DNA of 64,000 nucleotides. Source: Candidatus Daviesbacteria bacterium RIFCSPHIGHO2_12_FULL_37_16 (GTDB taxonomy: Bacteria; Patescibacteriota; Microgenomatia; Daviesbacterales; UBA10151). Of this stretch, positions 9,107 through 61,061 are shown one piece after another. Below the pieces are notes generated by a model that made no database searches, had not been told where the DNA came from, and was given only the letters and a program-made list of their open reading frames with translations. The stretch lies in assembly GCA_001776785.1 (NCBI GenBank), contig MFDF01000006.1:16769-80768 (forward strand), in the 5' to 3' direction. The position numbers and the translations under genes are program-made. The number at the start of each line of letters is the position of its first letter. The stretch's first letter is position 1.

Positions 9107-9120
9107 AGAAACACAATATT

Positions 9121-10509: not shown

Positions 10510-10518
10510 AAAATCTTA

Positions 10519-14505: not shown

Positions 14506-14522
14506 TTAGGATAGCATAAATA

Positions 14523-15733: not shown

Positions 15734-15749
15734 AATAAGTTATTAGAGC

Positions 15750-16136
15750 TTAGTTATCTGAGCTCAGTTTATTTAATCTATAATTTTTTGTTTGCTTTAT
15801 CAAGCCACTTAACATTTTACTAACTTCTTCAATTAAGGAAATTGCTTCATTTAATTGAACTTTATCCATATACTTTTGATCCAAACAAATGTACAAATGG
15901 CTTCTTATTTCTAGTAAAGATCCACGCGCTGTTCTATAAAATTGCATGCTTTCTTGTGAATGATACCTACCAAAACCTTCGGCTATATTGGCACTAACTG
16001 AAACACTAGCCCTTCTTAGTTGACTGGTTAGATTACTTCTTTCACTTGCAGGAAACTTAGAAGTTATCATATAAATCTTTTGATTTAACAATCTAGATTT
16101 CTGCCAAACAATTAAGTCCTCAAAACTTTTTATCAT
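15750..16136 (-). CDS. Four-helix-bundle protein (TIGR02436-like)
   Basis: DLIVWQKS...FPxxE...SQLRRASVSVSANIAEG signature. Confidence 0.7.
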   Translation of the reverse strand: MIKSFEDLIVWQKSRLLNQKIYMITSKFPASERSNLTSQLRRASVSVSANIAEGFGRYHSQESMQFYRTARGSLLEIRSHLYICLDQKYMDKVQLNEAISLIEEVSKMLSGLIKQTKNYRLNKLSSDN

Positions 16137-16167
16137 AACTGACCTCTGAGCTCTATGCTCTTTATAG

Positions 16168-17433
16168 CTAGAATAATCCCATCTGCTCCTCCTCTTTTAA
16201 TTTATCCTCATTTTCATCCCAGATTTTAACTACTCCATAAGTATTATCAAAACCTGGTTTTATAGTTAGTTTTCCTTTCCTAATCCTTTTAACGCCTTCT
16301 GCAATTTTTACTCCTGCATATTTTTCAATTTGTTCAAGTGGAGTTTTAGTTAAGATTTTTAATTCTGTATCTAGTGTTGTAACCAGTCTTTCATATTCAT
16401 TTTTGACTTTTTGGGAGGAGACTGTAGAATTTAGAGCTTCTGCAATTATTTCCTCCAGCTGAACCAGCATTCTGAATCCAGGCTTATCAGGAAATGCTTT
16501 TGATTTAATTACTCCATTTTCATTTGAAATTTGTAATTTGTCATTTGAAATTCCTGCAAGGTCCTCTACTCTTTGCATTACTCCAACTGTTAATTTTCTT
16601 TTACATTTGGGACAAATTACTCCTTTTTCTTTAAGCTCCTCTGGTCCATAAACTACTCCACAATTTCTGTGACCTGAGTAGTGGTATTTTCCCTCTTCCG
16701 GGAAAAATTCTATGGTACCAATGATTTTTCTTTGTTTAACTGACTTAGATAAACCCTCAAATGAACATTCCCCTCCAATTATTGTGGCTTCCCGTCCAAG
16801 CCTTGGCAGGGAGTGGGCATCTGAAAAAGAAAGTATGGCCTTTTCATCTAAGTCTTTTACTCTCCAATTCATGGCAGGTTCAGAAGATAAACCTGTTTCT
16901 ATGCCATAAATTTTGTCAGAAAAATCTCCAAAGCAGTCTGCAAATTTGTCATAGCCTGACTGCGACCCAAATAGAGAAAACCAGGGGGTCCAGATATGGG
17001 CAGGTATTATTAGGGCTTCTGGCTCTACAGAAAAAACTATTTCACACAAAGCTTTAGTGCTCATTCCCATAATTGGCCTGCCATCTGAAACCAGGTTGAT
17101 GCCTTTTTTTGTTAAGACTTCTGATAATTTTGCTGCAGAATCTAAGTTTGGCAGGAAAATTAAAATGTGGATCCTTCTAACTCTTCCTGCCTCTGAATAA
17201 ATACAGGCAACCTCTGTTGTGGGGATAAAAGTTATGCCATTAACCTGATATTTGCCATCAACCAATTTTAAATCTTTTTTTAATTCTGCCTGCCAAAGTG
17301 GGTGAAGACAATCCCCTGTTCCCATTAGACTTATACCTTTATATTTTGCCCATTTAGCTAGATTGGGGATGTTTAGTGCTGATGAACAGGCCCTGGAGAA
17401 TCTGGAGTGGATGTGTAAGTCTGCTACATAAGC
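16168..17433 (-). CDS. PHP-domain nuclease, endonuclease Q-like, with C-terminal zinc ribbon
   Basis: ADLHIHSRFSRA PHP motif and CPKCKRK Zn finger. The track ORF extends to 17616, but the MAYVADLHIHS start at 17433 avoids overlap with tatD. Confidence 0.5.
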   Translation of the reverse strand, partial: AYVADLHIHSRFSRACSSALNIPNLAKWAKYKGISLMGTGDCLHPLWQAELKKDLKLVDGKYQVNGITFIPTTEVACIYSEAGRVRRIHILIFLPNLDSAAKLSEVLTKKGINLVSDGRPIMGMSTKALCEIVFSVEPEALIIPAHIWTPWFSLFGSQSGYDKFADCFGDFSDKIYGIETGLSSEPAMNWRVKDLDEKAILSFSDAHSLPRLGREATIIGGECSFEGLSKSVKQRKIIGTIEFFPEEGKYHYSGHRNCGVVYGPEELKEKGVICPKCKRKLTVGVMQRVEDLAGISNDKLQISNENGVIKSKAFPDKPGFRMLVQLEEIIAEALNSTVSSQKVKNEYERLVTTLDTELKILTKTPLEQIEKYAGVKIAEGVKRIRKGKLTIKPGFDNTYGVVKIWDENEDKLKEEEQMGLF

Positions 17434-42782: not shown

Positions 42783-43688
42783 TCAAATTTTAAATTGTAA
42801 AGCCTTTTTTAGTAATCCTGCTATTTGGTCAAAATCTTCAACAACTAGAACACCACTCTCCTTAAGAACCATTCTCTTGTGGTCTGGTTTACCTCTTTCC
42901 CCTTCAATTATTGCACCTGCATGGCCAAATTGCACCTCTGAAGGTAAAGTCATTGTGAACTCACCTGCAATAAATGCTACTATAGGTTTTTTAATCTTTC
43001 CAGCTTTGACCATTTCTGCTACTCTTTCTTCATAAGTTCCACCCAGTTCTCCAAAAATAACAGAAGCTTGAGTATTAGGATCATCTTCAACTGCCATTAA
43101 AAAATCTGCAAAATCTGTGCCTGCAATCCTGTCCCCACCTATTCCTAAAGCATATGAAACACCCAAACCATTATTTCTTAAGTGAAGACCAATTTCACTG
43201 CTCATGCCTCCTGATTTTGAGATAATACAGATATTACCTTCCTTAAAAACCCTGTCAGGGTCTGCCCCACCTATTGAGCCTATTTTTAGTTTTTTTGCAG
43301 GATTTATCAGGCCCACAGAAGAAGGTCCAATAATATTTGCTCCCTTTTCTTGTGCCAGAGCATAAATATATGCAGAATCAGAAGTAGGCACTTTTTCTGT
43401 GAATATCAGCAAAAATTTGATTCCAGCCTCTAAGGCTTCCACAGCTGCAGCTTTTACAAACAGTGGTGGCACATATATTACAGTTGCATCAATCTCACCA
43501 AATTTCTCTGACAATTCTTTTACAGAATTAAAAACAGGCACACCTAAAACATCAGTGCCTCCTTTACCTGGGGTTACTCCTCCAACTACTTTTGTGCCAT
43601 AGCTTAACATGGTTTCCAAAGCCTTTGAGCCCTCTGAACCAGTGATACCTTGGCCAATTAATTTAGGATTATCAGGTAAAATTAACAT
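42783..43688 (-). CDS. Succinyl-CoA synthetase alpha-like / citryl-CoA synthetase small subunit-like (CoA-binding, phosphohistidine)
   Basis: GITGSEG...GTKVVGGVTPGKGG...GHAGAI phospho-His loop. Confidence 0.7.
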   Translation of the reverse strand: MLILPDNPKLIGQGITGSEGSKALETMLSYGTKVVGGVTPGKGGTDVLGVPVFNSVKELSEKFGEIDATVIYVPPLFVKAAAVEALEAGIKFLLIFTEKVPTSDSAYIYALAQEKGANIIGPSSVGLINPAKKLKIGSIGGADPDRVFKEGNICIISKSGGMSSEIGLHLRNNGLGVSYALGIGGDRIAGTDFADFLMAVEDDPNTQASVIFGELGGTYEERVAEMVKAGKIKKPIVAFIAGEFTMTLPSEVQFGHAGAIIEGERGKPDHKRMVLKESGVLVVEDFDQIAGLLKKALQFKI

Positions 43689-43769
43689 CGTATAAAGTTT
43701 ATCGGTTTCGATGCCCGTTTGGTTTAGGGGTTACGTTTAACGTCCAACTCCCTTACGATACTGGCTTCG

Positions 43770-44924
43770 TTACCCATTTCCTCCTAACTTTTCAGCATAT
43801 TCTTTGGCAAGCTTAACAATTATCTCTGCTGAGGCTGGAATTGAGGTGTCCTCACCATATAAATGCAGATCAAATTCTTTAACTTTTTTAAGCATTTCAA
43901 AAGCTTCATCATCCCTTGGTCCTGCCCTTCTTATGACTATTGGATATTTGGGATTAGGTTCAATTTTTTTCAGGGCATCAATTATGCCAGATAAAGTTTC
44001 ATAGATATCTGTAAAGTTAGCCAGGGCCCCTACTATCCAGAGACCATTTAAATTGGGTTTGTCTAAAACTATTTTAGTTAACTTCTCCACTTTTTCCCTT
44101 GGTGGGTTGCCTGAATATTCTGTAAAGTTTGCAGGCTTGCCACCTGCATTTAAAAGTGCATCCATGGCTGTGATTGAGGCTCCTCCTCCTGAGGCTAAAA
44201 TTGCAATGTCCCCATCAAAGTCAAAGTAAGTTGAGCCTGCAACACCCCTGTAGTCATTTTCATCAATTTTTTTAGCTTCTATCTCATTTTTAGTTGGAGT
44301 GTAGCCTGCAACAGAGCGGGGGGGGTAATCCTTCCAGGCTTCATGCCTGCCAATGGCAGTATCATCTAATTTTATTTTTGCATCCAAAGCTATCCAGCCA
44401 TCTTTGGTTTTTACAAGGGGATTAATTTCTAATAAAAGCATGTCTTGTTCAAAGAAGAGCTTGACCAGCTTATTTACTATTTCAGTTATATCATTTGGGT
44501 GTGCGACCGCACACTTTAGTGATAATGGGTCCACTGGATAAACTTGCACTTCCTTTTCTTCTATTCCTGTTCCCCCAGCTTCTGAGAAGGTTAAAATAGG
44601 AGATCTTGAATCTGTGTCATAGGATAAAGAGAGGTAATATTCTTTCTCAATCTCTACCTTTTCTTCTACCAAAACCTTTTCCACCTTTTCCTTATTAATT
44701 ATTTTTCCCAACAAATTTGAAATTTGAAATTTGAAATTTGAAATTTCGTCGCAGACGACTATTCCTCCAGCATCTGCCCTTTTGCCTGAGAGGACCTGAG
44801 CTTTAAGGACAACAGGATACTGCAGAGCTCTGAGCTCAGAGCTCTGATTGAATAGTTGGGAGGCTGGGACTTTGATGCCTGCATCAGCTAAAAGCTTTTT
44901 TCCTTCAAATTCAAAGAGGATCAT
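43770..44924 (-). CDS. Succinyl-CoA synthetase beta-like / citryl-CoA synthetase large subunit-like (ATP-grasp)
   Basis: N-terminal ATP-grasp and C-terminal GDIAILASGGGASITAMDALLNAGGKPANF ligase-CoA domain. Confidence 0.7.
   Translation of the reverse strand: MILFEFEGKKLLADAGIKVPASQLFNQSSELRALQYPVVLKAQVLSGKRADAGGIVVCDEISNFKFQISNLLGKIINKEKVEKVLVEEKVEIEKEYYLSLSYDTDSRSPILTFSEAGGTGIEEKEVQVYPVDPLSLKCAVAHPNDITEIVNKLVKLFFEQDMLLLEINPLVKTKDGWIALDAKIKLDDTAIGRHEAWKDYPPRSVAGYTPTKNEIEAKKIDENDYRGVAGSTYFDFDGDIAILASGGGASITAMDALLNAGGKPANFTEYSGNPPREKVEKLTKIVLDKPNLNGLWIVGALANFTDIYETLSGIIDALKKIEPNPKYPIVIRRAGPRDDEAFEMLKKVKEFDLHLYGEDTSIPASAEIIVKLAKEYAEKLGGNG
44713..44747. repeat. Perfect heptanucleotide tandem repeat (AAATTTG)x5 inside the sucC-like CDS
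   Basis: Read directly. 35 bp, not a multiple of 3. The same AAATTTG/AAATTTC motif recurs in the AT-rich 42731-42782 intergenic region. Confidence 0.6.
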
Positions 44925-45040
44925 TTCTTTATGAGTTTATATTTTCTTTCCTAAAATTGCAAAGCAATTTTGAAAGGAGGAACAGATGCAAACTGGAACA
45001 ATTCAGAAATTGTGGAAGTTGAAATCTTGTTCCGACGCAG

Positions 45041-45115
45041 TAGCAGGGGTGAGATTCGAACTCGACGATCTCGGCGTTATGAGTGCCGCGCTTTAACCAA
45101 CTAAGCTACCCTGCC
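45041..45115 (-). tRNA. tRNA with CAT anticodon (elongator Met or Ile2-lysidine type)
   Basis: Minus strand: acceptor GGCAGGG/CCCTGCT, D-arm GCTT-AGTTGGTTA-AAGC, anticodon loop CTCATAA, T-loop TTCGAAT. The T-stem pairs poorly as I read it, so a scan is needed. Confidence 0.55.
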
Positions 45116-45657: not shown

Positions 45658-46341
45658 TCATCTGATTTTTTTTATACTTAATTTAACAAACCCTAAAATT
45701 ATCAGGTCAATAATTAAAGGCAGGCTTAAAAAAAGGTTGGCTTTTTTTAAGACCTCTACCATAGTTTGACCCCAGCCTGAAGATAAAATTGTATTAAAAT
45801 CCAAAAGTCCAACATAATAAAAAGCTATTAAAATTGCAAAAAGGATGGCAAAGACCATTAAAGTCCCTTCCATGTCTTTTTTGGAAGAAAACATAGTATT
45901 TGAGACTATAAAAATTAAATAAAACATCAAAGCCCAAACCCAGATAGATATTCCAGAAGAATTAGTAATATACCAGGAGATGCCAATTATTAAGCTTAAA
46001 CCTACTAATACAGGTGCTACTCCAATGATTGTCCTTCTTAAGGGGTCAGTTTTTTGAATTTGGGCACTACCCAGCTTTACCCCATCTTCCCTTATTTCAG
46101 GCATGAACTCAATATCAGATGACTCAACAAGCATCATGCCTGCTACTATGACATGGGCCAGCTCATGAATAATTGTTCCAGGCAAAAATAAAAAGGCTAA
46201 AAGACCAATTGTTTTTTTGTGGGAGTGGGTTAAAAAATAAAAAAGTGTCCCTAAAGATTTTAATAAAAGTTTGGAGACAAAATATATTAAAAAAAGCAGG
46301 ATAAAAAAGAGAGTTATCTGGATTGGGGTAGAATCCAACAT
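45658..46341 (-). CDS. Polytopic membrane protein with HExxH motif (putative membrane metalloprotease)
   Basis: TIIHELAHVIVAGMM lies within a TM-rich 227-aa protein. Confidence 0.35.
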   Translation of the reverse strand: MLDSTPIQITLFFILLFLIYFVSKLLLKSLGTLFYFLTHSHKKTIGLLAFLFLPGTIIHELAHVIVAGMMLVESSDIEFMPEIREDGVKLGSAQIQKTDPLRRTIIGVAPVLVGLSLIIGISWYITNSSGISIWVWALMFYLIFIVSNTMFSSKKDMEGTLMVFAILFAILIAFYYVGLLDFNTILSSGWGQTMVEVLKKANLFLSLPLIIDLIILGFVKLSIKKIR

Positions 46342-46370
46342 GAACTTAAGTATATAAGGCTAAAATCTAA

Positions 46371-46399
46371 TTGACAACTTATTATTAATAGCTGATACT
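46371..46399 (+). promoter_or_regulatory. Sigma70-like promoter (TTGACA-17 nt-GATACT) with strong SD GGAGG upstream of the small acidic protein/giant protein operon
   Basis: TTGACA at 46371-46376, GATACT at 46394-46399, AAGGAGGTGA at 46419-46428, ATG at 46436. Confidence 0.4.
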
Positions 46400-46435
46400 G
46401 AATTTAACCTATATTTTTAAGGAGGTGATTTTTAT

Positions 46436-46825
46436 ATGGATAATACTCAACAAATCTTACAGATACCTCCTGATGTAAGATCATTTCTTGAAGGATTATT
46501 AACTGATGCCGGGATGACAAGCTTAGATGATGAAATGCGCGAAGAGATGTTAAAAGAGCTCTACGGGCGGCTTGATAATCACTTAAGTGCAACTATTATT
46601 GATAACCTGCCTCCTGAGAATTTAGATGAATTTATTAAATTAAATGAGGATGGAAAAACCAAAGAAGAGATTGAAAGTTACCTTAAAGAGAAGATGCCTA
46701 ATGCCCAGGAGGTATTAGCAAAGGCATTTATAGAATTTAGAGATCTTTATTTGGGAAATGTAACTGTTGCCAGGAATGCTCCCCCATCAGAGAGTCAACC
46801 TAGTGAGGGAGGCCAGACAAACTAA
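46436..46825 (+). CDS. Small acidic protein, 7 bp upstream of the giant ORF (possible chaperone/partner)
   Basis: 129 aa rich in D/E. Consensus RBS. Intergenic gap of 6 nt to the giant gene. Confidence 0.5.
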   Translation: MDNTQQILQIPPDVRSFLEGLLTDAGMTSLDDEMREEMLKELYGRLDNHLSATIIDNLPPENLDEFIKLNEDGKTKEEIESYLKEKMPNAQEVLAKAFIEFRDLYLGNVTVARNAPPSESQPSEGGQTN

Positions 46826-46831
46826 AATAAA

Positions 46832-49800
46832 ATGGAGGGATCTGCCGAAGTTAGTTCTTCACCACCGCCTGCTGCAGAAACAGGGACAAGGCCTGAAGCT
46901 CGGGTAAAGGATACCCGCGAGCAAGTCTTAAATGCCTTTAACGGGGCATTAGACATTCTTGAAAATACTCCGGAAGATAAATTAACTACTCACGAAAGGG
47001 CTGGTAAAAAATTAATAAAGGAGGTCAAAGCTAAAACTTTAGACCAGGATAAGACTACATTTAGGAATAGGTTCAAAGATGCAGCTGGAAATGAATATTC
47101 ACAGATGGAGTCTGTGCCTGTAGATGACCTGATTGATTTTTTGACTGAAAGGATAAAAAGCAATGATCTATCTGAGCAACAATTACAGGATTATAGAGAT
47201 AAAAGAGCTGTGCTTATTAGAAACAGCAAGCCCTATTATAGACTGGGCAGAGGCAACCCATTAAGGCTTGATGCCCGAGTTGACCAGGAATTAAAAAGAT
47301 TAGAAGAGGCAGGATTAACAACTGGTGATGGTGCAGTAGATAAGGAAGCAGCTGGAGCAAGCCTAACCAAGAGGCGCGAGCTCATTTTGCCAAGGGTTGA
47401 CAGAGGAACTGAGCCACCCCCTGTAGAACCTCCACCACCTATAACTGAACCTCCTGAACAACCACCTATAGAACCACCCCCTCCTGTGGAACCACCACAA
47501 CCACCTCCTACTGCAGGTGAAGTTATGAGAGAGCTTTTAGTTGCTAATGGAACTTTGCAGGTTGGAAGAAGGGCAGCTGAGACAGCAGAGGTGCAGCTTA
47601 GAAATGAACTTAGAAGAGGCCAATGGTATGAATTTTGGCATTGGCCAAGAAAAATAGGAATGAGGGTTGCAGAACAATTTCATAGACAAAATTATATTGA
47701 GAGAGCAAGAGCAGCTATGCTTGAGCACAATAATACACTTGGGGATTTTGATGTTGTCCATAATGTTGCAAGAAATGCTCAGGCAAATATTGATCAGGAG
47801 AGAGCAGAAGGTAAGGCTAAAGTTGCCCAAATAAAATCTGGTGATCTGATTGCTGGTCAAAATGTAGTTGAAGCTACAGGTGAGCTTAAAAACATGATGA
47901 TAAATGATATTTTAAGGCCAGTTGTTGAAGGAAGGGTGACTGAGCAGGGCCAGATTCAGCAGGCTTTAAGGGATTTTGTCCAAAATCACCAAGGAGACCT
48001 GCAGGTCCAGGCTGTTTTTGGCAGGGATGCAACCCAATATGGAAGACTAGCTGAATATTTTGCATCAGATTTAACAGAGACAGCTGAACTTGTCAGATCT
48101 GACATTGAAGCTCACAGGTATGCTATAGACCAGCTTAGTCAGGTAGTAAAGATAAATTTGGCAAATACTTCATGGGCAGCAGAAAGCCAGGCTAACTTTA
48201 ATGCAGTAGATAGGGCTGTAGCCTGGGCAGAATCCCATCAACTGCGCGGCTGGCTTCTAAACCCAGCCACTATTGGAGCTGTGGCCTCTTTGGCTTCATT
48301 TGGAATAAGCAGAGCATTGGGAGCTGGGTCTGCTGCTGCAAATATTATTGCACCAGGAGCAGGAATGATTGCTGGTGCAGCAGTTGCAGGAGTAAGGAGA
48401 AGTTATGACTTAAAGGTGGACCGGGCTGCTGATCAGGTTGAGGAAACATATAATGGACAAGTTCCAGCTCAGGGAGCACCAAGAAGGGAGGCTTTAAGAG
48501 AATTTAGATACAATACAGCTTCAGTTAGAGATTTAATTAATGGAGGTGGGGATGAGCTTTTAGGCGGGGGCAGAAGATTGAGCATGGATCAGCTTTTAAC
48601 TCAGGATCTGTCAGATGGGCAAAATGATAACAGAGAAGCTGTTGTCAGAAGAATTTCTGAGATTAAATCCAGGCTTGATTTTTCTGCAACTGAACATGTG
48701 GATTTAGTGACTTTTGAAGCCAGAGGAAAGGTTGAACAAGGCAGAATGCAGCTTGTCCAGGAGCGGGCAAGGGCAAGGATTGCATTAAGAAATGCCGGGA
48801 TGCTTGATGATGAAATTTTAACTTTAGAGACCAGGTTGACAGGAGAGTGGAATGAGAGGTTTACCCAAAATAGAGAGCAGCAGGATCACAGATTCCAGCT
48901 TTACAGATTAAGGAATGCCGGGGGGGCTGCTTTGTTTGGTGCAGCTGTTGGACTGGCTGGAGGGTTGGCAATTCAGCAGGGAGAGGCCTGGATTGGCAGG
49001 GCTGTGCCAGGGTTGTCTGAGGCTCCAGTTGTGGGGGCACTTTTTGGAAAAGGCCAAACCAGGATTGAGGCAGCTTTTGGCATAGCAGGGCCTACTTCTC
49101 CTGAGAGGTTTAATGTGTTTGGAGTTGATTTAAATGAGGCTTTTGATAAGCCTAAAAACTTTGTGATGAAAAACCCTAACACTGGTGAGGAGTTTTGGAT
49201 GGCAATCCACCCTGAGGATATCAATAAAACAAGGGAGATAACTTTTCTGGATACTAATGGGAATAAGCTTGATGGGCCCGCCATGTGGCTTGAAAAGAGT
49301 GATGATGGCAAGGTGAGTATTATTGGGGCTGGGGACACAAATTTGATGCCTAAGCAAGTCCAGGAGCTGGTTGGGGGCTGGGACAAGAATACTACTGAAA
49401 CCCACAACTTGAGAAGCTATATGAAGTTTTTAACTAAGGGTGGAGTTGAGAATACCTCTGATGAGGTAGTCGAATATGGGAATTTTAGTTTGAACTCACA
49501 TGATGTGCATGAATCAATTTTATTAAATGATGAGGGCAAACCATATGATGTGTGGGCACAGGAGGCTGGGAGGCTAAAGCCAGATGGAACTCCTGAGGTT
49601 GGGAAGATGTCTGTGACCTTACTCCCTACCAAAACCCAATTTCATGGATTTTTAAGGGAGGATGGGTCATTTGATGTTGATCCTAAATATTTTGTAGATG
49701 GAAATTATAGAGGTAATGCAGATATAAACCCCACTGATTATCAGGATATGCTTGATAATTTAAAGGCTGAGGGTTGGGGTGTAGATACTGGAGGGGTAAA

Positions 49801-52156
49801 TGGGGACCATATAAGCGCACCTGAAACATTTGAATATACCCCACCAGAAGTGGAAATAAATGAAGCTCCAATAATTCCAATACCATTTGCCCCAAGACAC
49901 CCACTGGAACCATTAATAATTCCCCGCCCGCCGGAAAACCCATACTACCTTTTTGGTTATGAAATTTTTAGGATGCCTGATGGTTCAATTGGAACTCTTT
50001 CAGATTTTATGCGCATAAGATCAGATGAAGCTAGAAATAGAGTCCCAACAAGAGAAGGTGAGTCTGAAGGTGAGCATGCGCTGGCAACAATCAGAGATGC
50101 TTTTGACAATGCAGACAGGGTTTATATTGACCTTTCTGGAGCAATTGGAGATGCTATTATAACTTCAGCTTACATTGATGGAATAAGAAAGCTTAATGAG
50201 TCTGAAGGAAAAGATAGAAAAATAACTTTAATTGCGACTCCTTTAATAGAATCTCTGCTTAGACCTACAGCAGATAAGTATGGTTATGAACTAATAGAAG
50301 CTCCAAGAGGCGAAGGGTTTGATAAGGCCAAGTCTTTGATTGATGAGCGGGATGAACAAAATCCACTGGTTTTGGATTTTGAACACTATACAGGAATGCC
50401 TGAGATAGATACCTTGCCTAAAAATGGTCTCGTGATAAAGGATCTTTTTGCATCCTCAGTTGTGATGTATGACCAGCAAAGATCTGGTAATAATAGGTTT
50501 ACAGCTTTCTTTTCAGATCTCTTAAGTATTCCTGCGGATCAAAGGGTTGATGTTGCACCAAGAATTGAGCTTCCTGAAAATAGTGAGGAGATTTACCAAA
50601 GTTTGGTGGAAAGATTTAGAATTGATAAAAATAAGCCACAAATCACCATAATTTTAGAGTCCAGCCACAAAATGAAAAAGTATTCTTTGGATAATTGGAG
50701 GGATGTAATGGATAGACTTTCAAGGGATATTCCTAATGCAGAATTAAATATTATCTATAATCCAAGAAGTCCGGAATATGATCCTAATAGATTAAGAGAG
50801 ATATTTAATGGAATCCCCAGGTCTAGATTTGTTGGTGGAGATTTGGATGAAATGGCAGTACTTCTTTCTAAACAGCAGCTGGTAGTCTCTAACGATACTG
50901 GATTAGCTCATGTGGCTGCAACTCTAGAGGGTGGTCCAAGGGTACTAACTCTTCATGTACCAGTCTTTCCACCTAATGCATGGGTTACTAATTCTAACAG
51001 ACATGTTGGGCTTCTTCCAAGGAATGAGAGTTTAACAAATGATTTTAATTCTGAGGAAAGTGATGAGTCTAAGAAGTGGATAAATAAGATAACACCAGAA
51101 GAAGTTGTCAGAAGGGCAGTTATGATATACCAAAATAATCTTACATCTCCCCCTTCTGTGGAAGAAACAACAGACCCTGTAACTCCACCACCTGCACCTA
51201 GAGTTAGATTGGCTACTCCTACTCCAGAAGAGGAAGATATATCACCTTCCAGGTTAGAACAGTTGAGAAATAATGTTAGTGATTTGCGGGCTAGGGCTGC
51301 AGCTGCATCAGGGCCTGCAAGAAGAGGTTTAGTTGAAAGGTTGAATAGAGCTGAGGAAGCATTAAGTAATGTTCTTAGAAGAAGAGATGAAACAGTTTCA
51401 TCACCTGCCACTGTGCCTGTTCCTCCAACACCTACTCCACCAGAGGCTGCACCAGTCCCTCCTGCACCTGATTTACCATCTCCAGCTTTTAGAAGAACAG
51501 AGGCTACAATTCCTGTGCCACCACCTGCACCAAGAGTTAGAGTTGCACCTGCTCCTGCTCCCACTCTTACTCCTACCAGGGTAGAGACTGCTCCAATTCC
51601 AACACCAGAAACTCCTCCCCCACCACCAGCACCAAGAGTTAGAGTTGCTCCTACAACTACTGTTGAGGCTACAAGTGAAGCATTTGATACAGAAGCGCCT
51701 ATAAGTTCAGGTAATTTATTAGAATCAGTCAATGAAAAACTTACCAACTCTTCTTCAAATCTTGAAACTGTTTTGAGTACTCCATCTGCTTTGACTGAAT
51801 TTTTGAAAACCTTAGAGTTTAATTTCGGAGCTAAATTTAAAGATGCCCAAACTAGTATTTCCGGGCGTCAGATAATAATTAACAATGGAGTAATTGAAGT
51901 GCCTGGAGGTGAAGCTAAATTTAATGGAATACTTGCAATTGATCCACAGGGTAAATTAACTCTTTTGGGAGAACCTAAGATTGATTTACCATTTCATTTA
52001 GGACTTCTTAGAGGGAAAGTTAATGATGCGTTGAAAAATCTAGATCAATCAGTCAGGAGTCAAATAAACAAAAGAATTGATCAAAGCTGGGAAGTGTCAG
52101 GATTTAATATTGACAGTGGGAATTTAGCTGTAGACTTTAGAAGACAAACTACTTAA
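46832..52156 (+). CDS. Giant (1774 aa) multidomain proline-rich protein with an embedded GT9-like (heptosyltransferase-fold) glycosyltransferase domain
   Basis: Single uninterrupted ORF. PPVEPPPPITEPPEQPP linker. Gly/Ala-rich hydrophobic segments at ~aa 520-575 and ~730-750. GT9 signature SGAIGDAIITS...LVVSNDTGLAHVAATLEGGPRVLTLH. Three PPAPRVR(V/L)A repeats. GC visibly higher than the neighbouring DNA. Confidence 0.7.
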   Translation: MEGSAEVSSSPPPAAETGTRPEARVKDTREQVLNAFNGALDILENTPEDKLTTHERAGKKLIKEVKAKTLDQDKTTFRNRFKDAAGNEYSQMESVPVDDLIDFLTERIKSNDLSEQQLQDYRDKRAVLIRNSKPYYRLGRGNPLRLDARVDQELKRLEEAGLTTGDGAVDKEAAGASLTKRRELILPRVDRGTEPPPVEPPPPITEPPEQPPIEPPPPVEPPQPPPTAGEVMRELLVANGTLQVGRRAAETAEVQLRNELRRGQWYEFWHWPRKIGMRVAEQFHRQNYIERARAAMLEHNNTLGDFDVVHNVARNAQANIDQERAEGKAKVAQIKSGDLIAGQNVVEATGELKNMMINDILRPVVEGRVTEQGQIQQALRDFVQNHQGDLQVQAVFGRDATQYGRLAEYFASDLTETAELVRSDIEAHRYAIDQLSQVVKINLANTSWAAESQANFNAVDRAVAWAESHQLRGWLLNPATIGAVASLASFGISRALGAGSAAANIIAPGAGMIAGAAVAGVRRSYDLKVDRAADQVEETYNGQVPAQGAPRREALREFRYNTASVRDLINGGGDELLGGGRRLSMDQLLTQDLSDGQNDNREAVVRRISEIKSRLDFSATEHVDLVTFEARGKVEQGRMQLVQERARARIALRNAGMLDDEILTLETRLTGEWNERFTQNREQQDHRFQLYRLRNAGGAALFGAAVGLAGGLAIQQGEAWIGRAVPGLSEAPVVGALFGKGQTRIEAAFGIAGPTSPERFNVFGVDLNEAFDKPKNFVMKNPNTGEEFWMAIHPEDINKTREITFLDTNGNKLDGPAMWLEKSDDGKVSIIGAGDTNLMPKQVQELVGGWDKNTTETHNLRSYMKFLTKGGVENTSDEVVEYGNFSLNSHDVHESILLNDEGKPYDVWAQEAGRLKPDGTPEVGKMSVTLLPTKTQFHGFLREDGSFDVDPKYFVDGNYRGNADINPTDYQDMLDNLKAEGWGVDTGGVNGDHISAPETFEYTPPEVEINEAPIIPIPFAPRHPLEPLIIPRPPENPYYLFGYEIFRMPDGSIGTLSDFMRIRSDEARNRVPTREGESEGEHALATIRDAFDNADRVYIDLSGAIGDAIITSAYIDGIRKLNESEGKDRKITLIATPLIESLLRPTADKYGYELIEAPRGEGFDKAKSLIDERDEQNPLVLDFEHYTGMPEIDTLPKNGLVIKDLFASSVVMYDQQRSGNNRFTAFFSDLLSIPADQRVDVAPRIELPENSEEIYQSLVERFRIDKNKPQITIILESSHKMKKYSLDNWRDVMDRLSRDIPNAELNIIYNPRSPEYDPNRLREIFNGIPRSRFVGGDLDEMAVLLSKQQLVVSNDTGLAHVAATLEGGPRVLTLHVPVFPPNAWVTNSNRHVGLLPRNESLTNDFNSEESDESKKWINKITPEEVVRRAVMIYQNNLTSPPSVEETTDPVTPPPAPRVRLATPTPEEEDISPSRLEQLRNNVSDLRARAAAASGPARRGLVERLNRAEEALSNVLRRRDETVSSPATVPVPPTPTPPEAAPVPPAPDLPSPAFRRTEATIPVPPPAPRVRVAPAPAPTLTPTRVETAPIPTPETPPPPPAPRVRVAPTTTVEATSEAFDTEAPISSGNLLESVNEKLTNSSSNLETVLSTPSALTEFLKTLEFNFGAKFKDAQTSISGRQIIINNGVIEVPGGEAKFNGILAIDPQGKLTLLGEPKIDLPFHLGLLRGKVNDALKNLDQSVRSQINKRIDQSWEVSGFNIDSGNLAVDFRRQTT

Positions 52157-52480: not shown

Positions 52481-52729
52481 TTATAGTTTGTCAAGAAGCC
52501 TCAATTTCTCTTCCCTGCTCCAGGATTTTATCTCTATTTCCCTTTTTAGAGCTTCTGATTTAGTTTTAAAAATTTCTTTATAAATAATTTTTAAGGGCTT
52601 GTGGGATCTGGTGTAGCTGCCGCCTTTTCCATTTTGGTGGCTTAAAAACCTTTTTTCTAAGTTATTAGTTGAGCCTGTATAGAGTGAATTATCTCTGCAA
52701 AGAAGTATATATACAAACCACATTACCAA
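52481..52729 (-). CDS. GIY-YIG domain protein (UPF0213-like small nuclease)
   Basis: FVYILLCRDNSLYTGSTNNLEKR contains the GIY...YIG-type motif. Confidence 0.6.
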   Translation of the reverse strand: MVMWFVYILLCRDNSLYTGSTNNLEKRFLSHQNGKGGSYTRSHKPLKIIYKEIFKTKSEALKREIEIKSWSREEKLRLLDKL

Positions 52730-53041: not shown

Positions 53042-53398
53042 TTACCTTCTGTGGCTGCCTCTTAAGAAGCTGCCTCCACCACCTCTTTTAGAGTTGTCTC
53101 TTCCAGAATAAGAATTGTTGTTTCTGTTTTGGTTGTAGCCTCCTCTATTATCTTCTCTTGGTCTGGCAACTGAAACTCCAATTTTTCTGCCTTCAAGTCC
53201 AAAGCCATCAAGTTCTTTGATAGCAGTTTGGGCTTCAGTGTCATTTGGCATTTCTACAAAAGCAAAACCTTTTGACTGGTTTGTGTATTTATCCATGATA
53301 ATTTGGGCTGAAGAAACTGTTCCATACTTTTCAAATAATTCTTTTAATTTTTCATTTGTTAAAGAGAAAGGAATACCTCCAATAAATAATTTAGTCAT
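53042..53398 (-). CDS. RRM-domain RNA-binding protein with Gly/Arg-rich tail
   Basis: RNP-2 LFIGGIP and RNP-1 KGFAFVEM, with a C-terminal RGG/G-rich tail. Confidence 0.75.
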   Translation of the reverse strand: MTKLFIGGIPFSLTNEKLKELFEKYGTVSSAQIIMDKYTNQSKGFAFVEMPNDTEAQTAIKELDGFGLEGRKIGVSVARPREDNRGGYNQNRNNNSYSGRDNSKRGGGGSFLRGSHRR

Positions 53399-54322: not shown

Positions 54323-54396
54323 CGCGGGGTAGAGCAGTGGTAGCTCGGGAGGCTCATAATCTCCAGGTCAGTGGTTCGAATCCACTCCCCGCAACA
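54323..54396 (+). tRNA. Initiator tRNA-fMet (CAT anticodon, C1·A72 mismatch)
   Basis: Acceptor CGCGGGG/CCCCGCA, identical to the E. coli tRNA-fMet acceptor. D-arm GAGC-AGTGGTA-GCTC, loop CTCATAA, T-arm AGTGG-TTCGAAT-CCACT. Confidence 0.75.
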
Positions 54397-55723: not shown

Positions 55724-56605
55724 ATGGGACATAATATGATTAGTTTAAAAGATGCCCACCAGCAATTTATTGGCCATTTAAAGGGTAGAGGCAGAGCTTC
55801 TGCTACTATCTTAGCCTATGGCAAAGATATTGAGCAACTGGTTTCACACCTTCAATCCTTAGGAAAAGAGGATGCAAATGCTGTAGAAACAACTGACTTA
55901 CAGATTTTTATGGACAAGCTCTCAAAAGAGGCTTATACAGCTAAATCCATTTCAAGAAAGACTAATTCTACCAAAACTTTTTTTAAATTCTTAAAATCTT
56001 CAGGCATAATTGAAGATGATCCAGCCAGAGGCTTAGAACACCCTAAATTTGAGAATAAACCACCAAGAATTTTATCTGAGCTTGAATATAGGGCTTTAAG
56101 GGATGTTGCAAGATCAGATTTAAGGATGTTTGCCATTATTGAGCTCTTTTTACAGACTGGAATCAGGATTGGAGAGCTGGCAAAGATTACAGTTGATGAT
56201 GTGACTTTGGAGGGACCTACATCCGTGCTTCATATTAAACAGGCAGAAGGGGCTGTGGAGAGGACAATCCCTTTAAATAAACCTGCTGTAGAGGCTTTAA
56301 AGAGGTATTTAGAAGTAAGACCACAAACTCAAAACAAAACTTTATTTGTGACAAAAACTGGAAAACCACTTTTAATAAGGAATATCAGGACTGCAATTGA
56401 CAGATATTTTAGATTAGCAGGGATCTCAGGAGCAAAGGTGAATGATTTAAGACATACCTGGATTGCACATCACCTTAAATCTGGTACTTCCCTACTCCTT
56501 ATATCCAAATTAGCAGGACACAAAAGAGTTTCTACAACTGAAAGATATTTACAATTTATTACTGGGGTAACAAATGAAGGCAAAGTTCAACTAGAAGAAC
56601 TTTAA
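55724..56605 (+). CDS. xerC: Tyrosine recombinase (XerC/XerD/integrase family)
   Basis: N-terminal SAM-like domain. Catalytic R (LRHT), HxxR-like GHKRV and RY (TTERY) near the C-terminus. Confidence 0.8.
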   Translation: MGHNMISLKDAHQQFIGHLKGRGRASATILAYGKDIEQLVSHLQSLGKEDANAVETTDLQIFMDKLSKEAYTAKSISRKTNSTKTFFKFLKSSGIIEDDPARGLEHPKFENKPPRILSELEYRALRDVARSDLRMFAIIELFLQTGIRIGELAKITVDDVTLEGPTSVLHIKQAEGAVERTIPLNKPAVEALKRYLEVRPQTQNKTLFVTKTGKPLLIRNIRTAIDRYFRLAGISGAKVNDLRHTWIAHHLKSGTSLLLISKLAGHKRVSTTERYLQFITGVTNEGKVQLEEL

Positions 56606-56616: not shown

Positions 56617-57006
56617 ATGTTCTCCCCGGAAAGTTTAGTTAAATGGTATTTTACTCCTAAACCTTTTGAAAAAGATGGTAAAGTTTATGAACAACTTGGC
56701 ATCAAACACCTTGAGAAACTAGTAGTTATGATTGGTACTCACTTCAACTCTACGCACTACTTTCTAAAAGACTTCTCAATTTCTTCACTCACTCACTATG
56801 AAATGAATACTCGATTTTTTGAATCTACCCATTTAAAAGGATTTGGAGCTTTAGTGGTAGCGGCGGTGATTGTTAGTCCCTTAACTCGAGAAGGAGCAGC
56901 TATTGCTATTGCTGGAGCAGGAATGAACTTAGCGTTGGTAGCTTTACAACGATATAACAGAAGTCGAATTTACTCAATTTACGATAGAAAGGGTCTTGAT
57001 CACTAA
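56617..57006 (+). CDS. Hypothetical protein
   Basis: 129-aa ORF with a hydrophobic C-terminal half. Confidence 0.3.
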   Translation: MFSPESLVKWYFTPKPFEKDGKVYEQLGIKHLEKLVVMIGTHFNSTHYFLKDFSISSLTHYEMNTRFFESTHLKGFGALVVAAVIVSPLTREGAAIAIAGAGMNLALVALQRYNRSRIYSIYDRKGLDH

Positions 57007-57101: not shown

Positions 57102-57111
57102 AACTAATATG

Positions 57112-57182
57112 TAGGCCCGGAAGGAATCGAACCTTCGTCATGACTGTATAAGAATCAGGCATTACCATTATGCAACGGGCCT
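57112..57182 (-). tRNA. tRNA with TAT anticodon (putative tRNA-Ile UAU)
   Basis: Minus strand: acceptor AGGCCCG/CGGGCCT, D-arm GCAT-AATGGTA-ATGC, anticodon stem TGATT/AGTCA with loop CTTATAC, T-arm GAAGG-TTCGATT-CCTTC. Confidence 0.55.
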
Positions 57183-57382: not shown

Positions 57383-59743
57383 TTATAGTCTGGCGCGGTT
57401 GGAGATTTCGGCTTCTACCATAGTTCTATCCCTGCCATAGGTTAACCTGGAGAGTTCTTTAATTGCCCTTCCTACATCAGGCCTTAACATAGCTTTCCAG
57501 GCTTTCATATCCTTAATAGTTGAAACAGAAAAAGGCGGGACAGGCTCACCTGCAACCTGAGTTTTCATATATACATGAAAGGCTTCAATATTGACTAAAT
57601 CTTTTTCATCAAAGATTGGTTGGAATTCATGCTGCAGGAAGCTAGCATCTGTTACTCCAACCCTAAAGGCTACAACTGACCCTACATTTCCAAAAACTGC
57701 ATTTTTTAAATCTTCCCCTATCTGGCCAATAAACTGATTGGCTACTGTTAAATTTAACCTGTATTTTCTGGCCTCAGATAAAATCTCTGCAAAGGTGTCT
57801 GTGGCGAAATTTTGAAACTCATCAACATAAAGATAAAAATCCCTTCTCTGGTCTACAGGCATATCTGCCCTGGACATGGCAGCAGCCAGTAGTTTTGGCA
57901 CCAAGACTAATCCCAGGAAGTTTGAGTATTCCTCCCCTATCCTTCCTTTAGAGAGGTTAACAATTAAGATCTTTCCTTCATCCATGACTTTTCTTAAGTT
58001 AAATGAAGACTCTGACTGGCCAATAATATTTCTCATCATGATGTTGGTGACAAAGCGGCCAAATTTGGAAACATTGTAGTCTAAGATCTCTGATTTGTGG
58101 AAGTCTGCAGTCTGGGCAATCTGGTCAGTCCAATACCTTCTGACAACAGGGTCACCAACATAGGGCAATAACTCTTTGACAAACTCAGGGTCTGTTAAGA
58201 CTCTAACAACCTCTAAAAATGTTCCGCCGGGACGGGACATAACAGTAAGCATGGCGTTTCTGACATTGTGTTCAAAGCGGGGGCCAATGATACCTGTTTT
58301 ATTTGGATCATAAAGTTTGTACATAAGTCCTATAATTGAGGCCACCACAAAGTGCTTTTGTTCTTCTGAGGTAGCTTCAAGCATGTTCACACCCATAGGC
58401 CTGTCTGTATCTGATGGGTCAAAGTAGATAACATCCTGGGCCCTATTGGGCGGGATAAGCTCCAACATCTCCTCTGCTGCATCACCGTGGGGATCAATAA
58501 AACATAAACCCTTGCCTGCATGGATGTCCTGGATCATTAAGGTTTTTAAAAGCTCTGATTTTCCTGTACCAGTCCTTCCGATAATATACATGTGCCTTCT
58601 TCTGTCATCCTCTGAAATATAGACAGGCCGTTCAACTCCCCTAAAGACAGATTTTCCTATATATAACCCAGAAGTTGGGATCTTTTCAGGAGCAGGTGCA
58701 GACTTGGCTGGCAGCCAGGTGATGTGAGGGGTTTCAATGGCTTTTGATGGAAAATGAAAAACAGAGGCTATCTCATCTGATGTTAAAACTGGCAATCTGT
58801 CAAAGCGTGGTAAGTATCTGTAAATAAAGTCTTTAATAAAACCTTTTTCAGAGCGAGTTTTCATGCCTGAGAAACCATTGTAAGGGCCATTAAACTGCTC
58901 AAATGAGGCCTTAATATTAGACAAATGTGCCCTGGCTGCTTCTTTTGAGGTAGAAGAGGTGACAATCCTGATAACTGCATTAAAGCCTGATTTTTGGATT
59001 TTTCCTTCAACTGCTTCAATTTGTTTTTGGTCGGGGGGGGCTTTAGGTTTTTCTCCATCTCCAGGGTCCCTTTCTTTTTTTATAAACTTTTTACCAGGCT
59101 CTTTCCACTTTCCATCTGCCGGGGCAATGATCATTTGGACTACTGCTCCCTCCCCTGGCTGCATTTTGGCTAAAGCTGATGTTAAACCGGAGAGGGGATC
59201 TGTTGGCAGGTCTTTATAAGTTTTTATTGGGAAGTAATTATTAGCTCTAAGCCCCAGCATGGTGTAGGCTACCTCACCTGTTTCTGAAAAGATGTTATAT
59301 TCAGGGACTTCTTTTATTGAGGCATCAGGGTAGGCTCCATTAATCTGCTTTTCTACCAGATCCTGGAATTTTTTATGACAGGAGACATAAAATCTGATGG
59401 ATTCAGGCAAGGCTACAATTTCAAAGGTGATGTGGGGCTGGGGCCTCAAAAAATCAAGCCAACTAATAAACCCGCCTGAGGTTTTAATAGAGTAAAGGGC
59501 GCTCATTAATTGTTCTGCTGCGTCTATTTTTATCTCATTTCCCCTGGGGATTGTGACCTGGAGGAGGACAAAACCTAATGAGTATTGTTCCCTGTCCCTA
59601 TATTTATACCAGCCTATGATGTGAGGCAAAAAATAATAGATTAGGCCTGCAATGGATAAAATGGCAGTAATAATACCTCCTGCTATTAGAAGCAGGCTGA
59701 AAAAATTAAAATTTTGTGGGGTTTGGGCAAGTTGAGCTTCCAA
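57383..59743 (-). CDS. VirD4/TraG/TraD-like coupling-protein ATPase (T4SS DNA-transfer family, FtsK/HerA superfamily)
   Basis: N-terminal TM helix. Walker A GRTGTGKS, then FIDPHGD, and Walker B LYVDEFQNF. Confidence 0.5.
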   Translation of the reverse strand: MEAQLAQTPQNFNFFSLLLIAGGIITAILSIAGLIYYFLPHIIGWYKYRDREQYSLGFVLLQVTIPRGNEIKIDAAEQLMSALYSIKTSGGFISWLDFLRPQPHITFEIVALPESIRFYVSCHKKFQDLVEKQINGAYPDASIKEVPEYNIFSETGEVAYTMLGLRANNYFPIKTYKDLPTDPLSGLTSALAKMQPGEGAVVQMIIAPADGKWKEPGKKFIKKERDPGDGEKPKAPPDQKQIEAVEGKIQKSGFNAVIRIVTSSTSKEAARAHLSNIKASFEQFNGPYNGFSGMKTRSEKGFIKDFIYRYLPRFDRLPVLTSDEIASVFHFPSKAIETPHITWLPAKSAPAPEKIPTSGLYIGKSVFRGVERPVYISEDDRRRHMYIIGRTGTGKSELLKTLMIQDIHAGKGLCFIDPHGDAAEEMLELIPPNRAQDVIYFDPSDTDRPMGVNMLEATSEEQKHFVVASIIGLMYKLYDPNKTGIIGPRFEHNVRNAMLTVMSRPGGTFLEVVRVLTDPEFVKELLPYVGDPVVRRYWTDQIAQTADFHKSEILDYNVSKFGRFVTNIMMRNIIGQSESSFNLRKVMDEGKILIVNLSKGRIGEEYSNFLGLVLVPKLLAAAMSRADMPVDQRRDFYLYVDEFQNFATDTFAEILSEARKYRLNLTVANQFIGQIGEDLKNAVFGNVGSVVAFRVGVTDASFLQHEFQPIFDEKDLVNIEAFHVYMKTQVAGEPVPPFSVSTIKDMKAWKAMLRPDVGRAIKELSRLTYGRDRTMVEAEISNRARL

Positions 59744-60563: not shown

Positions 60564-61061
60564 TCATTTGTGAGAGACAATTTCACCTTCTGTTGGGTAG
60601 AGTGATGGAATTCTAACTGGTTCTAAATTTTTAGTCTGAAAAAAGATCTCTGCAATTTTTTGGGTGTTTTCTAAAAGCTCATTTGCTGCATCCAAATTAA
60701 TTTCCTGTTTAGTTTTTGAGGCTAATTTCATTGTTTTCCAGACTAAATCATGTAAATCTGGGAATTTTTCTAAGTGCTCTTCCTTAAAATAATCAGACCA
60801 TAAAACCTGGAGTTCTCTTTTTAATATTTCTGCATGGTCTTCTTTGACTTTGGTAAGCCTTGAAAGCTGATGAGTGTACTTTTTCTCAGACTGTTCACTA
60901 TCATCCTCCTCATTTAAATCCTGAATCATAGAAGTCATCCTGATTACAGTGTGAGATGCTGTCTGCATGTTGTGTGGGTCATAGATTCCACAGGGGATGT
61001 CACAGTGAGCATAAACTGGTTGTGATGGAAGAATTGAGAATAATGAATGAAGGATATTCAT
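60564..61061 (-). CDS. sodN: Nickel superoxide dismutase precursor
   Basis: Propeptide followed by the HCDIPCGIYDP nickel-hook motif. Confidence 0.8.
   Translation of the reverse strand: MNILHSLFSILPSQPVYAHCDIPCGIYDPHNMQTASHTVIRMTSMIQDLNEEDDSEQSEKKYTHQLSRLTKVKEDHAEILKRELQVLWSDYFKEEHLEKFPDLHDLVWKTMKLASKTKQEINLDAANELLENTQKIAEIFFQTKNLEPVRIPSLYPTEGEIVSHK

Follow-up and report, generated by a model that had tools for sequence, protein, structure and literature searches.

A glycosyltransferase family 9 domain in a Daviesbacteria member of an apparently undescribed family of polymorphic giant proteins often encoded beside type IV secretion genes

Enzymes of glycosyltransferase family 9 (GT9) have until now been stand-alone proteins of ∼330 aa that act on lipopolysaccharide (LPS) or on autotransporters. 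Much of bacterial diversity falls within the Patescibacteria, whose members live attached to other microbes. Here we describe an operon in a 64,000-nt stretch of the genome of Candidatus Daviesbacteria bacterium RIFCSPHIGHO2_12_FULL_37_16 (contig MFDF01000006.1; 'the window' denotes this whole stretch), in which the gene for a small acidic protein of the DUF5663 family precedes that for a giant of 1774 aa with an internal GT9 domain (Table 1). The giant is very probably a GT9-carrying member of an undescribed polymorphic family whose genes have two fixed partners and a frequent address among type IV secretion system (T4SS) genes. The original prediction, made from the DNA alone, held that a GT9 domain embedded in a giant protein is not a described arrangement, and we found no paper that describes one. 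As to function, we tentatively favor a membrane-anchored, T4SS-associated, polymorphic carrier of host-directed enzymes.

A 2024 perspective calls the role of the Patescibacteria T4SS 'completely unknown', speculates on the delivery of effectors to hosts, and states that the system is essential in the single genetically tractable Patescibacteria species (PMC11665869). A 2025 survey of these systems by Quinonero-Coronel et al. reports that VirB6 is scarce in Microgenomatia, that the few VirB8 proteins nearly all belong to class ABY1, that PrgB-type adhesins were not detected, and that relaxases are absent from most clusters (PMC12102498). In the sections of it that were read, and in term searches of its text, no mention was found of the giant, of DUF5663 or of the site-2 protease (S2P)-like gene that accompanies them (PMC12102498).

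The GT9-like domain that had been read from motifs within the giant is borne out by profile, model and fold comparison. Pfam family PF01075 matches aa 1245–1366 (E = 1.2e-11; 44.8 bits against a gathering cutoff of 22); an AlphaFold2 model of aa 1000–1774, built on 25 family sequences, gives a full-length GT-B fold over aa 1044–1439 at a predicted local distance difference test score (pLDDT) above 90; and the top eight Foldseek matches in the PDB are all GT9 enzymes, with E-values from 2e-14 to 7e-10 and TM-scores of 0.65–0.68 over the whole target. They include a Veillonella GT9 (3tov; E = 2e-14), WaaF (1psw; 5e-13), WaaC (2h1h and 2gt1; 2e-11) and 2h1f. As modeled, the internal domain is a genuine and complete GT9 domain of the GT-B fold, and a very divergent one: sequence identity to solved GT9 enzymes is ∼13 per cent, and its scores against the NCBIfam equivalog models for heptosyltransferase I (TIGR02193; 35.3 bits, with the cutoff at 185.3; E = 7e-9) and TIGR02195 (18 bits against 134.6) fall far below threshold. 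A profile of the family's GT9 domains found nothing meaningful among PDB sequences, and the GT9 segment and the C-terminal domain, used as word-index queries, each retrieved a single protein. Residues G1106, D1107, K1282, Y1284, W1289, N1354, D1355, G1357, H1360 and A1362, which we take to correspond to residues of WaaC, are invariant or nearly so in 16–17 GT9 domains of the family, and this retention of the signature argues for retained catalysis.

A relation to the autotransporter heptosyltransferases, which the original prediction had mentioned, did not hold up. TibC holds its iron through a cysteine motif, and the giant contains no cysteine in 1774 aa, so that it cannot form an iron site of this type; in the fold search TibC (4rb4) appeared just at rank 45 (E = 6e-6; TM-score 0.51). 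A TibC-type autotransporter heptosyltransferase was therefore rejected as a candidate. To our knowledge, the organism is a monoderm-type candidate phyla radiation (CPR) bacterium without LPS, and if so the acceptor of the GT9 domain cannot be the LPS inner core. GT9 would then extend to a module within a giant protein of an LPS-less bacterium, with some other acceptor implied.

An open reading frame (ORF) of such mosaic domain make-up, with shifts in composition along its length, might be expected of an assembly chimera of unrelated genes. This explanation is practically inconceivable here, and the giant ORF is real, because the identical 1774-aa protein occurs on 13 contigs (three GenBank accessions and several public sources; longest contig 142 kb) and strain variants of it (P0165 and P0166) are 100 per cent identical bar one indel of 32–34 aa in a proline-rich stretch. 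The same architecture of core, junction motif, GT9 domain and C-terminal domain also recurs at 40–50 per cent identity in other species (P0031, P0034 and L019), and the check for misassembly or chimerism gave no sign of either. In our protein set the giant is identical to P0162, deposited for Candidatus Daviesbacteria (Microgenomates, CPR) as KKQ10498.1, KKQ15679.1 and OGE36204.1, and it is UniRef100_A0A0G0EUA7, annotated as 'uncharacterized'. The indel lies at 51332–51529 (aa ∼1501–1566), in the region of the PPAPRVRVA repeats, and constitutes a polymorphism of linker length within one species.

The giant does not stand alone. A word-index search retrieved 28 giants of 996–2575 aa, and an exhaustive phmmer search with the core module (aa 228–760) yielded 214 clusters at E ≤ 1e-10, rising to 435 at E ≤ 1e-3; almost all are 1000–2900 aa in length, and the named sources are Daviesbacteria, Levybacteria and Roizmanbacteria. 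For a census of domains, 160 family members were searched with reference segments, with Pfam labels taken from close homologs. The core is present in all 160. It is preceded by the linker of PPxEPP type (aa ∼195–227) and contains the Gly/Ala-zipper hydrophobic segments, both of which the original prediction had described correctly. The first two segments form a hairpin at aa 477–521 (Kyte–Doolittle peaks of 1.35–1.56; G482, G511 and G515 invariant; helices predicted in the structure model at 478–495 and 500–541), and a third hydrophobic segment follows at aa 696–716 (peak of 1.74; G707 and G711 invariant), the GxxxG glycines of the segments being invariant throughout. Fold comparison found no PDB relative for the N-terminal domain (aa 30–190) and no convincing one for the N-terminal 1000 aa, and a search of PDB sequences with the whole giant gave nothing.

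Beyond the core, the family is held together by a short junction motif, PIIPIPFAPRHPLEP, which occurs as a single copy in 27 of the 28 close homologs and is found in 90 of the 160 census members; its Arg is invariant in 90 of 90, and its Pro, Leu and Glu positions are nearly so. The first slot after this junction is taken by GT9 in 25 of the 160 members, by a GT-A-like domain in ∼60 and by unknown domains in ∼20. The label 'GT-A-like' is tentative because the Pfam matches behind it are weak (Glycos_transf_2, 0.0017; GT21, 0.05; CHGN, 0.07); a profile of this module, like that of GT9, found nothing meaningful among PDB sequences, and Pfam gave nothing usable on eight non-GT9 modules. Farther downstream the census found PP2C (13 members), protein kinase (7), Methyltransf_21 (3), peptidase-like (4) and 'lyase-like' (7) domains. 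A split form exists on one contig, where a scaffold that ends 83 aa past the junction (P0012) and a GT9 protein (P0029) are encoded by separate genes.

The C-terminal portion of the giant is equally modular. The three PPAPRVRVA repeats of the original prediction were found at aa 1453 (as PPAPRVRLA), 1564 and 1598, with no tandem repeat in the DNA beneath them; aa 1501–1600 contain 30 prolines, and the proline-rich region is predicted to be disordered except for a helical hairpin at aa 1472–1522 (pLDDT ∼90). The C-terminal domain is separate, as had been claimed, and its modeled fold is alpha/beta where a beta-rich one had been proposed. It recurs in 18 of the 160 members, mostly at the extreme end and with a tail of the form DF[KR][KR][KR].

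Several further observations concern the modules. In locus L006 a separate 595-aa gene for a TPR and GT9 protein (9993–11780) follows the GT9-bearing giant, and L018 has two successive GT9-like stretches (14089–16392), so that some giants are accompanied by extra GT9 copies. A C-terminal module of ∼190 aa without a Pfam match is found in seven members (among them the C-termini of P0007, P0008 and P0016), with the consensus ..GYLM.EP..MP...DFKWL...PRIALY..PRRPGTNAY.D..G.EWR.LNYNN.PGYSE.EA.DP.WR. In P0028, aa ∼1680–1770 match RamC_N weakly (E = 0.004), and the module might conceivably be an effector domain of phospho-lyase type.

A comparison of two closely related strains locates the point at which the giants begin to diverge. 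The flanking genes of loci L001 and L004 are 91–94 per cent identical in DNA, and the giants of the two loci (P0009 and P0004, respectively) are 91–98 per cent identical through aa 717, the end of the third hydrophobic helix. Identity then falls to 18–55 per cent over the next ∼200 aa and returns to ∼80 per cent up to the junction, past which the proteins are unrelated, one carrying a GT-A-like domain and the other GT9; three extra genes lie within the replaced segment in L004. In BLAST mapping, the similarity of most homologs to the query giant ends at query aa 694–763. Given this drop in identity and this clustering of end points, the last hydrophobic helix marks the boundary between the constant and variable parts, and the junction motif marks a second boundary.

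The genes beside the giant include two conserved partners. Neighborhoods were counted over the window and 15 independent loci, with L015, which encodes a 626-aa distant relative, set aside. In 16 of 16 loci the gene immediately upstream of the giant is a DUF5663 gene, which extends to the whole sample the pairing of a small acidic ORF with giants that was predicted from the window. Both ORFs of the window are present as described, the giant's being uninterrupted and beginning 6 nt after the DUF5663 stop codon. The DUF5663 protein has an isoelectric point of 4.3 (26 D/E against 12 K/R), scores 41.2 bits against its Pfam family (cutoff 23.7; E = 2.6e-10) and aligns with its homologs at numerous invariant positions; no paper was found that mentions DUF5663 or PF18908. 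Its aa 3–40 (46436–46555) also gave a weak partial PHROG match to small terminase subunits (E = 7e-6) in which no stretch passes singly; it is probably spurious. PADLOC gave no hits and PHROGs none besides this one, and readings of the locus as a defense system or as phage were rejected for want of support from either.

The expression signals of the operon were found in part. A strong Shine–Dalgarno sequence, AAGGAGGTGA, stands at 46420–46429, 6 nt 5′ of the DUF5663 start codon, as the original prediction had it. The giant, which was said to share it, has no well-spaced Shine–Dalgarno sequence of its own, only GAGGGAGG ∼18 nt 5′ of its start. For this reason translation of the giant is likely coupled to that of the DUF5663 gene. 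The predicted near-consensus promoter exists on the plus strand (46371–46399; TTGACA, 17 nt, GATACT), with 10 of 12 matches, a perfect −35 hexamer and a −10 hexamer matching at 4 of 6 positions. It overlaps an opposed minus-strand site (46377–46349; TTGTCA, 17 nt, TATACT; also 10 of 12) that serves the side of the divergent upstream gene. The region contains 20 promoter-like sites against 18.6 in shuffled sequence, and since such sites are no commoner than by chance the promoter is weak evidence.

That divergent gene encodes the second partner, a protein of ∼230 aa with ∼6 hydrophobic segments that is encoded next to the DUF5663–giant pair in 14 of 15 loci. An HExxH motif (H58, E59 and H62) and D155-x-E157-G158 are invariant in eight orthologs, seven of which match Pfam Peptidase_M50 (PF02163) weakly (best E = 0.0056), and no sequence match was found in the PDB. 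These motifs make it moderately likely that the protein is a divergent S2P-like enzyme. The constancy of this neighbor raises the possibility that the giant is a receptor that senses contact and signals through regulated intramembrane proteolysis: the variable C-terminal part would sense the host, an initial cleavage, perhaps at the junction, would be followed by an S2P-like cut of the Gly-rich helix, and the freed N-terminal ∼700 aa with DUF5663 would switch on T4SS or attachment genes. S2P proteases such as RseP and SpoIVFB cut helices with helix-breaking residues and free cytoplasmic N-terminal domains; the giant has a conserved N-terminal and a variable C-terminal part, and a Trans_reg_C regulator lies upstream in T4SS-linked loci. 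We nonetheless regard this explanation as improbable. The sensor would consist of cofactor-dependent enzymes with conserved catalytic motifs, unlike known sensors of this kind, no DNA-binding, sigma or anti-sigma domain was detected in the N-terminal part, and the M50 assignment is itself weak.

The trio of S2P-like, DUF5663 and giant genes lies inside a Patescibacteria T4SS cluster in 9 of 15 loci, with T4SS genes within 10 kb. The order in these clusters is a Trans_reg_C regulator, four VirB2-like pilins, the trio, a PrgI/VirB3-like gene, a TrsD-like gene, VirB4, dnaN and dnaA. VirB6 proteins of Rickettsiales are extended. A gene placed between the pilins and VirB3/VirB4 in nine loci might encode a structural component, with the core supplying the channel subunit, like VirB6 or VirB8, that would be 'missing' in Microgenomates, and with C-terminal extensions particular to each lineage; the reports that VirB6 is scarce in Microgenomatia and that the few VirB8 proteins fall almost wholly in class ABY1 (PMC12102498) are in keeping with this. 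Several properties of the giant make such a role very improbable, however. It has ∼3 weakly hydrophobic segments where VirB6 has at least five strong transmembrane helices; there is no Pfam match to TrbL/VirB6 or VirB8 and no match by fold; the trio is often detached from T4SS genes (in the window, L005, L007, L017, L019 and L024); and the swapping of modules would be unexpected for a channel subunit. A better candidate for VirB6 lies at the edge of the T4SS-linked loci, in the form of a 592-aa protein with seven strong hydrophobic segments (L001, 356–2134, plus strand; also in L010 and L018).

In the window itself, a coupling protein-like ATPase is encoded 5.2 kb downstream of the giant. It has an N-terminal hydrophobic segment and a Walker A motif (GRTGTGKS), and it matches the NCBIfam models SXT_TraD (7e-16), VirD4-like CD1115 (7e-10) and TOL TraD (1e-9), all below their cutoffs, as well as TrwB (4e-4) and DotL (2e-3) in the PDB and Pfam DUF87 (score 27.9, cutoff 23.2). 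The ATPase is possibly linked to the giant in function, and its proximity may be coincidence, because no such gene accompanies giants elsewhere.

The properties of the giant that bear on its location are largely read from its sequence. It has no N-terminal signal peptide. Basic residues stand at both ends of the hairpin and on the predicted cytoplasmic side of the third helix, which suggests a topology with the N-terminus inside, the hairpin, a cytoplasmic loop, the third helix and the C-terminus outside. This topology stays provisional because the segments are moderately hydrophobic (1.35–1.74, against 2.1–3.5 in neighboring membrane proteins) and are modeled with low confidence (pLDDT 52–68). 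Proteins that live outside the cell or pass through membranes unfolded are typically poor in cysteine; the giant has none, whereas the residue makes up 0.66 per cent of the window's other ORFs (P = 8e-6) and 0.077 per cent of residues across the family. In family members the final 12 residues average a charge of +0.96, whereas random 12-mers average −0.31.

If the giant is a carrier of host-directed enzymes, as we tentatively favor, its N-terminal part would stay in the symbiont cytoplasm, since the basic residues sit on the predicted cytoplasmic flanks, and would be anchored by the hairpin and the third helix. DUF5663 would keep the giant secretion-competent or dock it, in the manner of small acidic chaperones of secretion substrates, and the region past the third helix would be exported and face the host. 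Release could occur by cleavage at the junction or through the S2P-like protease within the Gly-rich helix. The enzyme modules, which need nucleotide-sugars or ATP, would then act in the host cell after transfer dependent on the T4SS and its coupling protein, and the GT9 domain would glycosylate a host target. A set of glycosyltransferase, kinase, phosphatase, methyltransferase and peptidase-like domains is typical of the effectors of Legionella and other bacteria. This proposal draws on that likeness to a translocated-effector repertoire, on the position of the cofactor-needing modules on the diversifying, recombining side of the last helix, and on a small acidic partner and an adjacent protease that fit chaperoning and release. 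In its fullest form the giants would be cargo of the Patescibacteria T4SS whose modules are threaded into the host bacterium and rewire it by glycosylation or phospho-signaling, which is conceivable and on balance unlikely.

The main alternative keeps the enzyme modules within the symbiont. A glycosyltransferase-like domain, either GT9 or GT-A-like, occupies the first slot in ∼85 of the 160 members, which suggests a conserved glycosylation function, and it is possible, if rather doubtful, that the giant is a resident glycosylation scaffold tethered to the inner membrane face with its modules in the cytoplasm. Its targets would be T4SS pilins, surface proteins or, before export, its own Pro/Thr/Ser-rich linkers, the last of these amounting to the self-glycosylating adhesin suggested in the original prediction. 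GT9, kinase and PP2C domains all require cytosolic cofactors, the gene stands beside the pilin array in T4SS-linked loci, the Pro/Thr-rich stretches look like O-glycosylated linkers, and cytoplasmic glycosylation of adhesins is known from GT9 enzymes of the TibC/Aah type. Against this, the abrupt loss of identity past the third helix in P0009 and P0004 and the replacement of modules better fit a host-facing region, and the exchange of a GT-B domain for another fold at the same position would be unusual for a single conserved acceptor. The depletion of cysteine is extreme, and the features of TibC-type enzymes are absent.

A number of observations weigh against a host-directed carrier. Export, cleavage and host entry of the giant are proposed steps, and the suggested topology comes from a simple hydropathy scan and charged flanks. 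PP2C lies N-terminal to the core in some distant members (P0102 and P0115), so modules are not always on the putative exported side, a placement that would also suit a scaffold in the cytoplasm; in over half of the members the first slot is filled by a glycosyltransferase-like module, for which housekeeping glycosylation is equally possible. In the window and the five other detached loci no pilin, PrgI, TrsD-like or VirB4 gene lies within 10 kb; when the T4SS proteins of L001 and L003 served as tblastn queries, none of these was recovered from the window, in whose left flank there are genes of purine biosynthesis and no T4SS. No counterpart of the coupling protein-like ATPase was found near giants in the other loci, so such a neighbor is confined to the window. 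There is no conserved immunity-like gene downstream of the giants, where the genes vary by locus and are unrelated to family modules bar the TPR and GT9 gene of L006. The positive charge of the tails, finally, is modest, with 39 per cent at +2 or more against a background of 11 per cent.

Table 1. Coordinates in the window of the operon, of the segments of the giant protein and of neighboring genes discussed in the text.
Feature	Position	Strand	Basis or remark
129-aa acidic protein, Pfam DUF5663	46436..46825	+	ORF list; candidate chaperone/adaptor of the giant
1774-aa giant modular protein	46832..52156	+	ORF without internal stop
N-terminal alpha/beta domain, aa 30–190	46919..47401	+	pLDDT ∼90; in 92/160 family members
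PPxEPP linker, aa 191–227	47402–47512	+	sequence
Conserved core module, aa 228–760, family signature	47513..49111	+	phmmer; many invariant residues
Gly/Ala-rich hydrophobic helical hairpin, aa 477–521, candidate membrane hairpin	48260..48394	+	
Third hydrophobic Gly-zipper segment, aa 696–716	48917..48979	+	constant/variable boundary
Beta-rich middle domain, aa ∼765–985, variable module	49124..49786	+	pLDDT ∼70, mainly strands; 25/160 members
Junction motif PIIPIPFAPRHPLEP, aa 1013–1027	49868..49912	+	predicted disordered
GT9 (GT-B fold) domain as modeled, aa 1044–1439	49961..51148	+	Pfam, AlphaFold2, Foldseek
Proline-rich region with three PPAPRVR[LV]A repeats and helical hairpin aa 1472–1522	51149..51706	+	
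C-terminal alpha/beta domain, aa 1626–1774, basic tail ..VDFRRQTT	51707..52153	+	pLDDT 60–87
Back-to-back promoter-like sites	46349..46399	both	94-nt divergent intergenic region
227-aa polytopic membrane protein, divergent S2P/M50-like	45658..46341	−	divergently transcribed from the operon
785-aa type IV coupling protein-like ATPase (VirD4/TraD/TrwB type)	57383..59743	−	5.2 kb downstream of the giant

The surroundings of the operon had suggested a GC-rich island bounded by tRNA genes, and of this the raw observations stand and the island does not. The G+C content of the giant gene is 0.422, where the window's other ORFs average 0.363, and its content at third codon positions (GC3) is 0.284 against a background of 0.281; since GC3 equals the background, the excess reflects a composition rich in Pro, Ala and Gly and not foreign origin. 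The two flanking tRNA genes exist (45040–45115 and 54323–54395) and are two different tRNA-Met genes on opposite strands. With GC3 at background, unlike tRNA-Met genes and a gene trio conserved in Microgenomates chromosomes, a tRNA-bounded island was rejected. A XerC/D-type tyrosine recombinase gene (55724–56605, plus strand) comes shortly after the tRNA-bounded segment, with no att repeats seen.

Other genes of the window merit brief record. Two minus-strand genes come immediately after the giant, one for an 82-aa stand-alone GIY-YIG protein (52481–52729) and one for an RRM-type RNA-binding protein of 118 aa whose tail is rich in Gly and Arg (53042–53398). A CrtO-like acyltransferase gene (56617–57006, plus strand) and the nickel superoxide dismutase gene sodN (60564–61061, minus strand; 161.7 bits against a cutoff of 90) lie farther on. 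In most bacteria AUA is decoded by a CAT tRNA that carries lysidine, and a tRNA-Ile with a UAU anticodon is uncommon; the window encodes a tRNA-Ile with anticodon TAT (57111–57182, minus strand), which may say something about decoding in this lineage. On the left side, a purine biosynthesis cluster (486–13185, plus strand, and 5583–6857, minus strand), labeled by Pfam through the matching locus L008, comprises a PurL-like FGAM synthase, a GATase, adenylosuccinate synthetase, two DUF1246/DUF1297 proteins that we take to be archaeal-type PurP, adenylosuccinate lyase, AIRC, SAICAR synthase and AIR synthase; so long a cluster is unexpected in a 'minimal' CPR genome. At 42783–44924 (minus strand) a CoA_binding/Ligase_CoA gene adjoins one with ATP-grasp_2 and ATP-citrate-lyase citrate-binding domains, and from these domains they appear to be a succinyl-CoA-synthetase or ATP-citrate-lyase-like pair.

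For the Patescibacteria T4SS, the family, which is large and linked to the T4SS locus, supplies concrete candidates, with a constant part, a boundary motif, a catalog of modules and two conserved partners. Should the giants prove to be its cargo, they would represent an inter-bacterial analog of Legionella-type effector biology within one polymorphic polypeptide. Should they instead be resident scaffolds, glycosylation of proteins or of the surface would be a conserved, strain-variable feature of the interface between symbiont and host.

Among described proteins, the nearest to the GT9 domain are WaaC and WaaF (2h1h and 1psw) and the Veillonella GT9 3tov, with which it shares the GT-B fold of two Rossmann domains over its full length, an N-terminal G-D motif and a C-terminal D-T-G-x-x-H-x-A signature. 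It differs from them in its low identity and in sitting inside a 1774-aa protein. TibC and Aah are GT9 enzymes that glycosylate protein and not lipid and so offer a precedent for the adhesin idea, but their autotransporter partner is absent here, as is the cysteine motif.

In overall plan the giants resemble polymorphic toxins such as CdiA, Rhs and LXG, with which they share a constant N-terminal part for trafficking, a boundary motif and exchanged C-terminal modules, and in which split or stand-alone modules are likewise seen. They show no sequence relation to those families, however, and carry glycosyltransferases, kinases, PP2C and methyltransferases, none of them a known toxin domain, in place of nucleases, deaminases or pore formers; they lack a conserved immunity gene, and their partner machine would be a T4SS. 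The large clostridial toxins TcdA and TcdB and the MARTX toxins combine, as the giants would under the carrier proposal, a giant polypeptide, a hydrophobic delivery region, a modular cargo of glycosyltransferase or other enzymes and a processing site that releases it, although their domain order is the reverse, the giant's glycosyltransferase is GT-B/GT9 and not GT-A, and the protease here is a separate membrane protein. The machinery itself has a described counterpart, as the gene neighborhood around the giants in T4SS-linked loci is the same as that of the MPF-FATA-like T4SS of Patescibacteria in the survey (PMC12102498).

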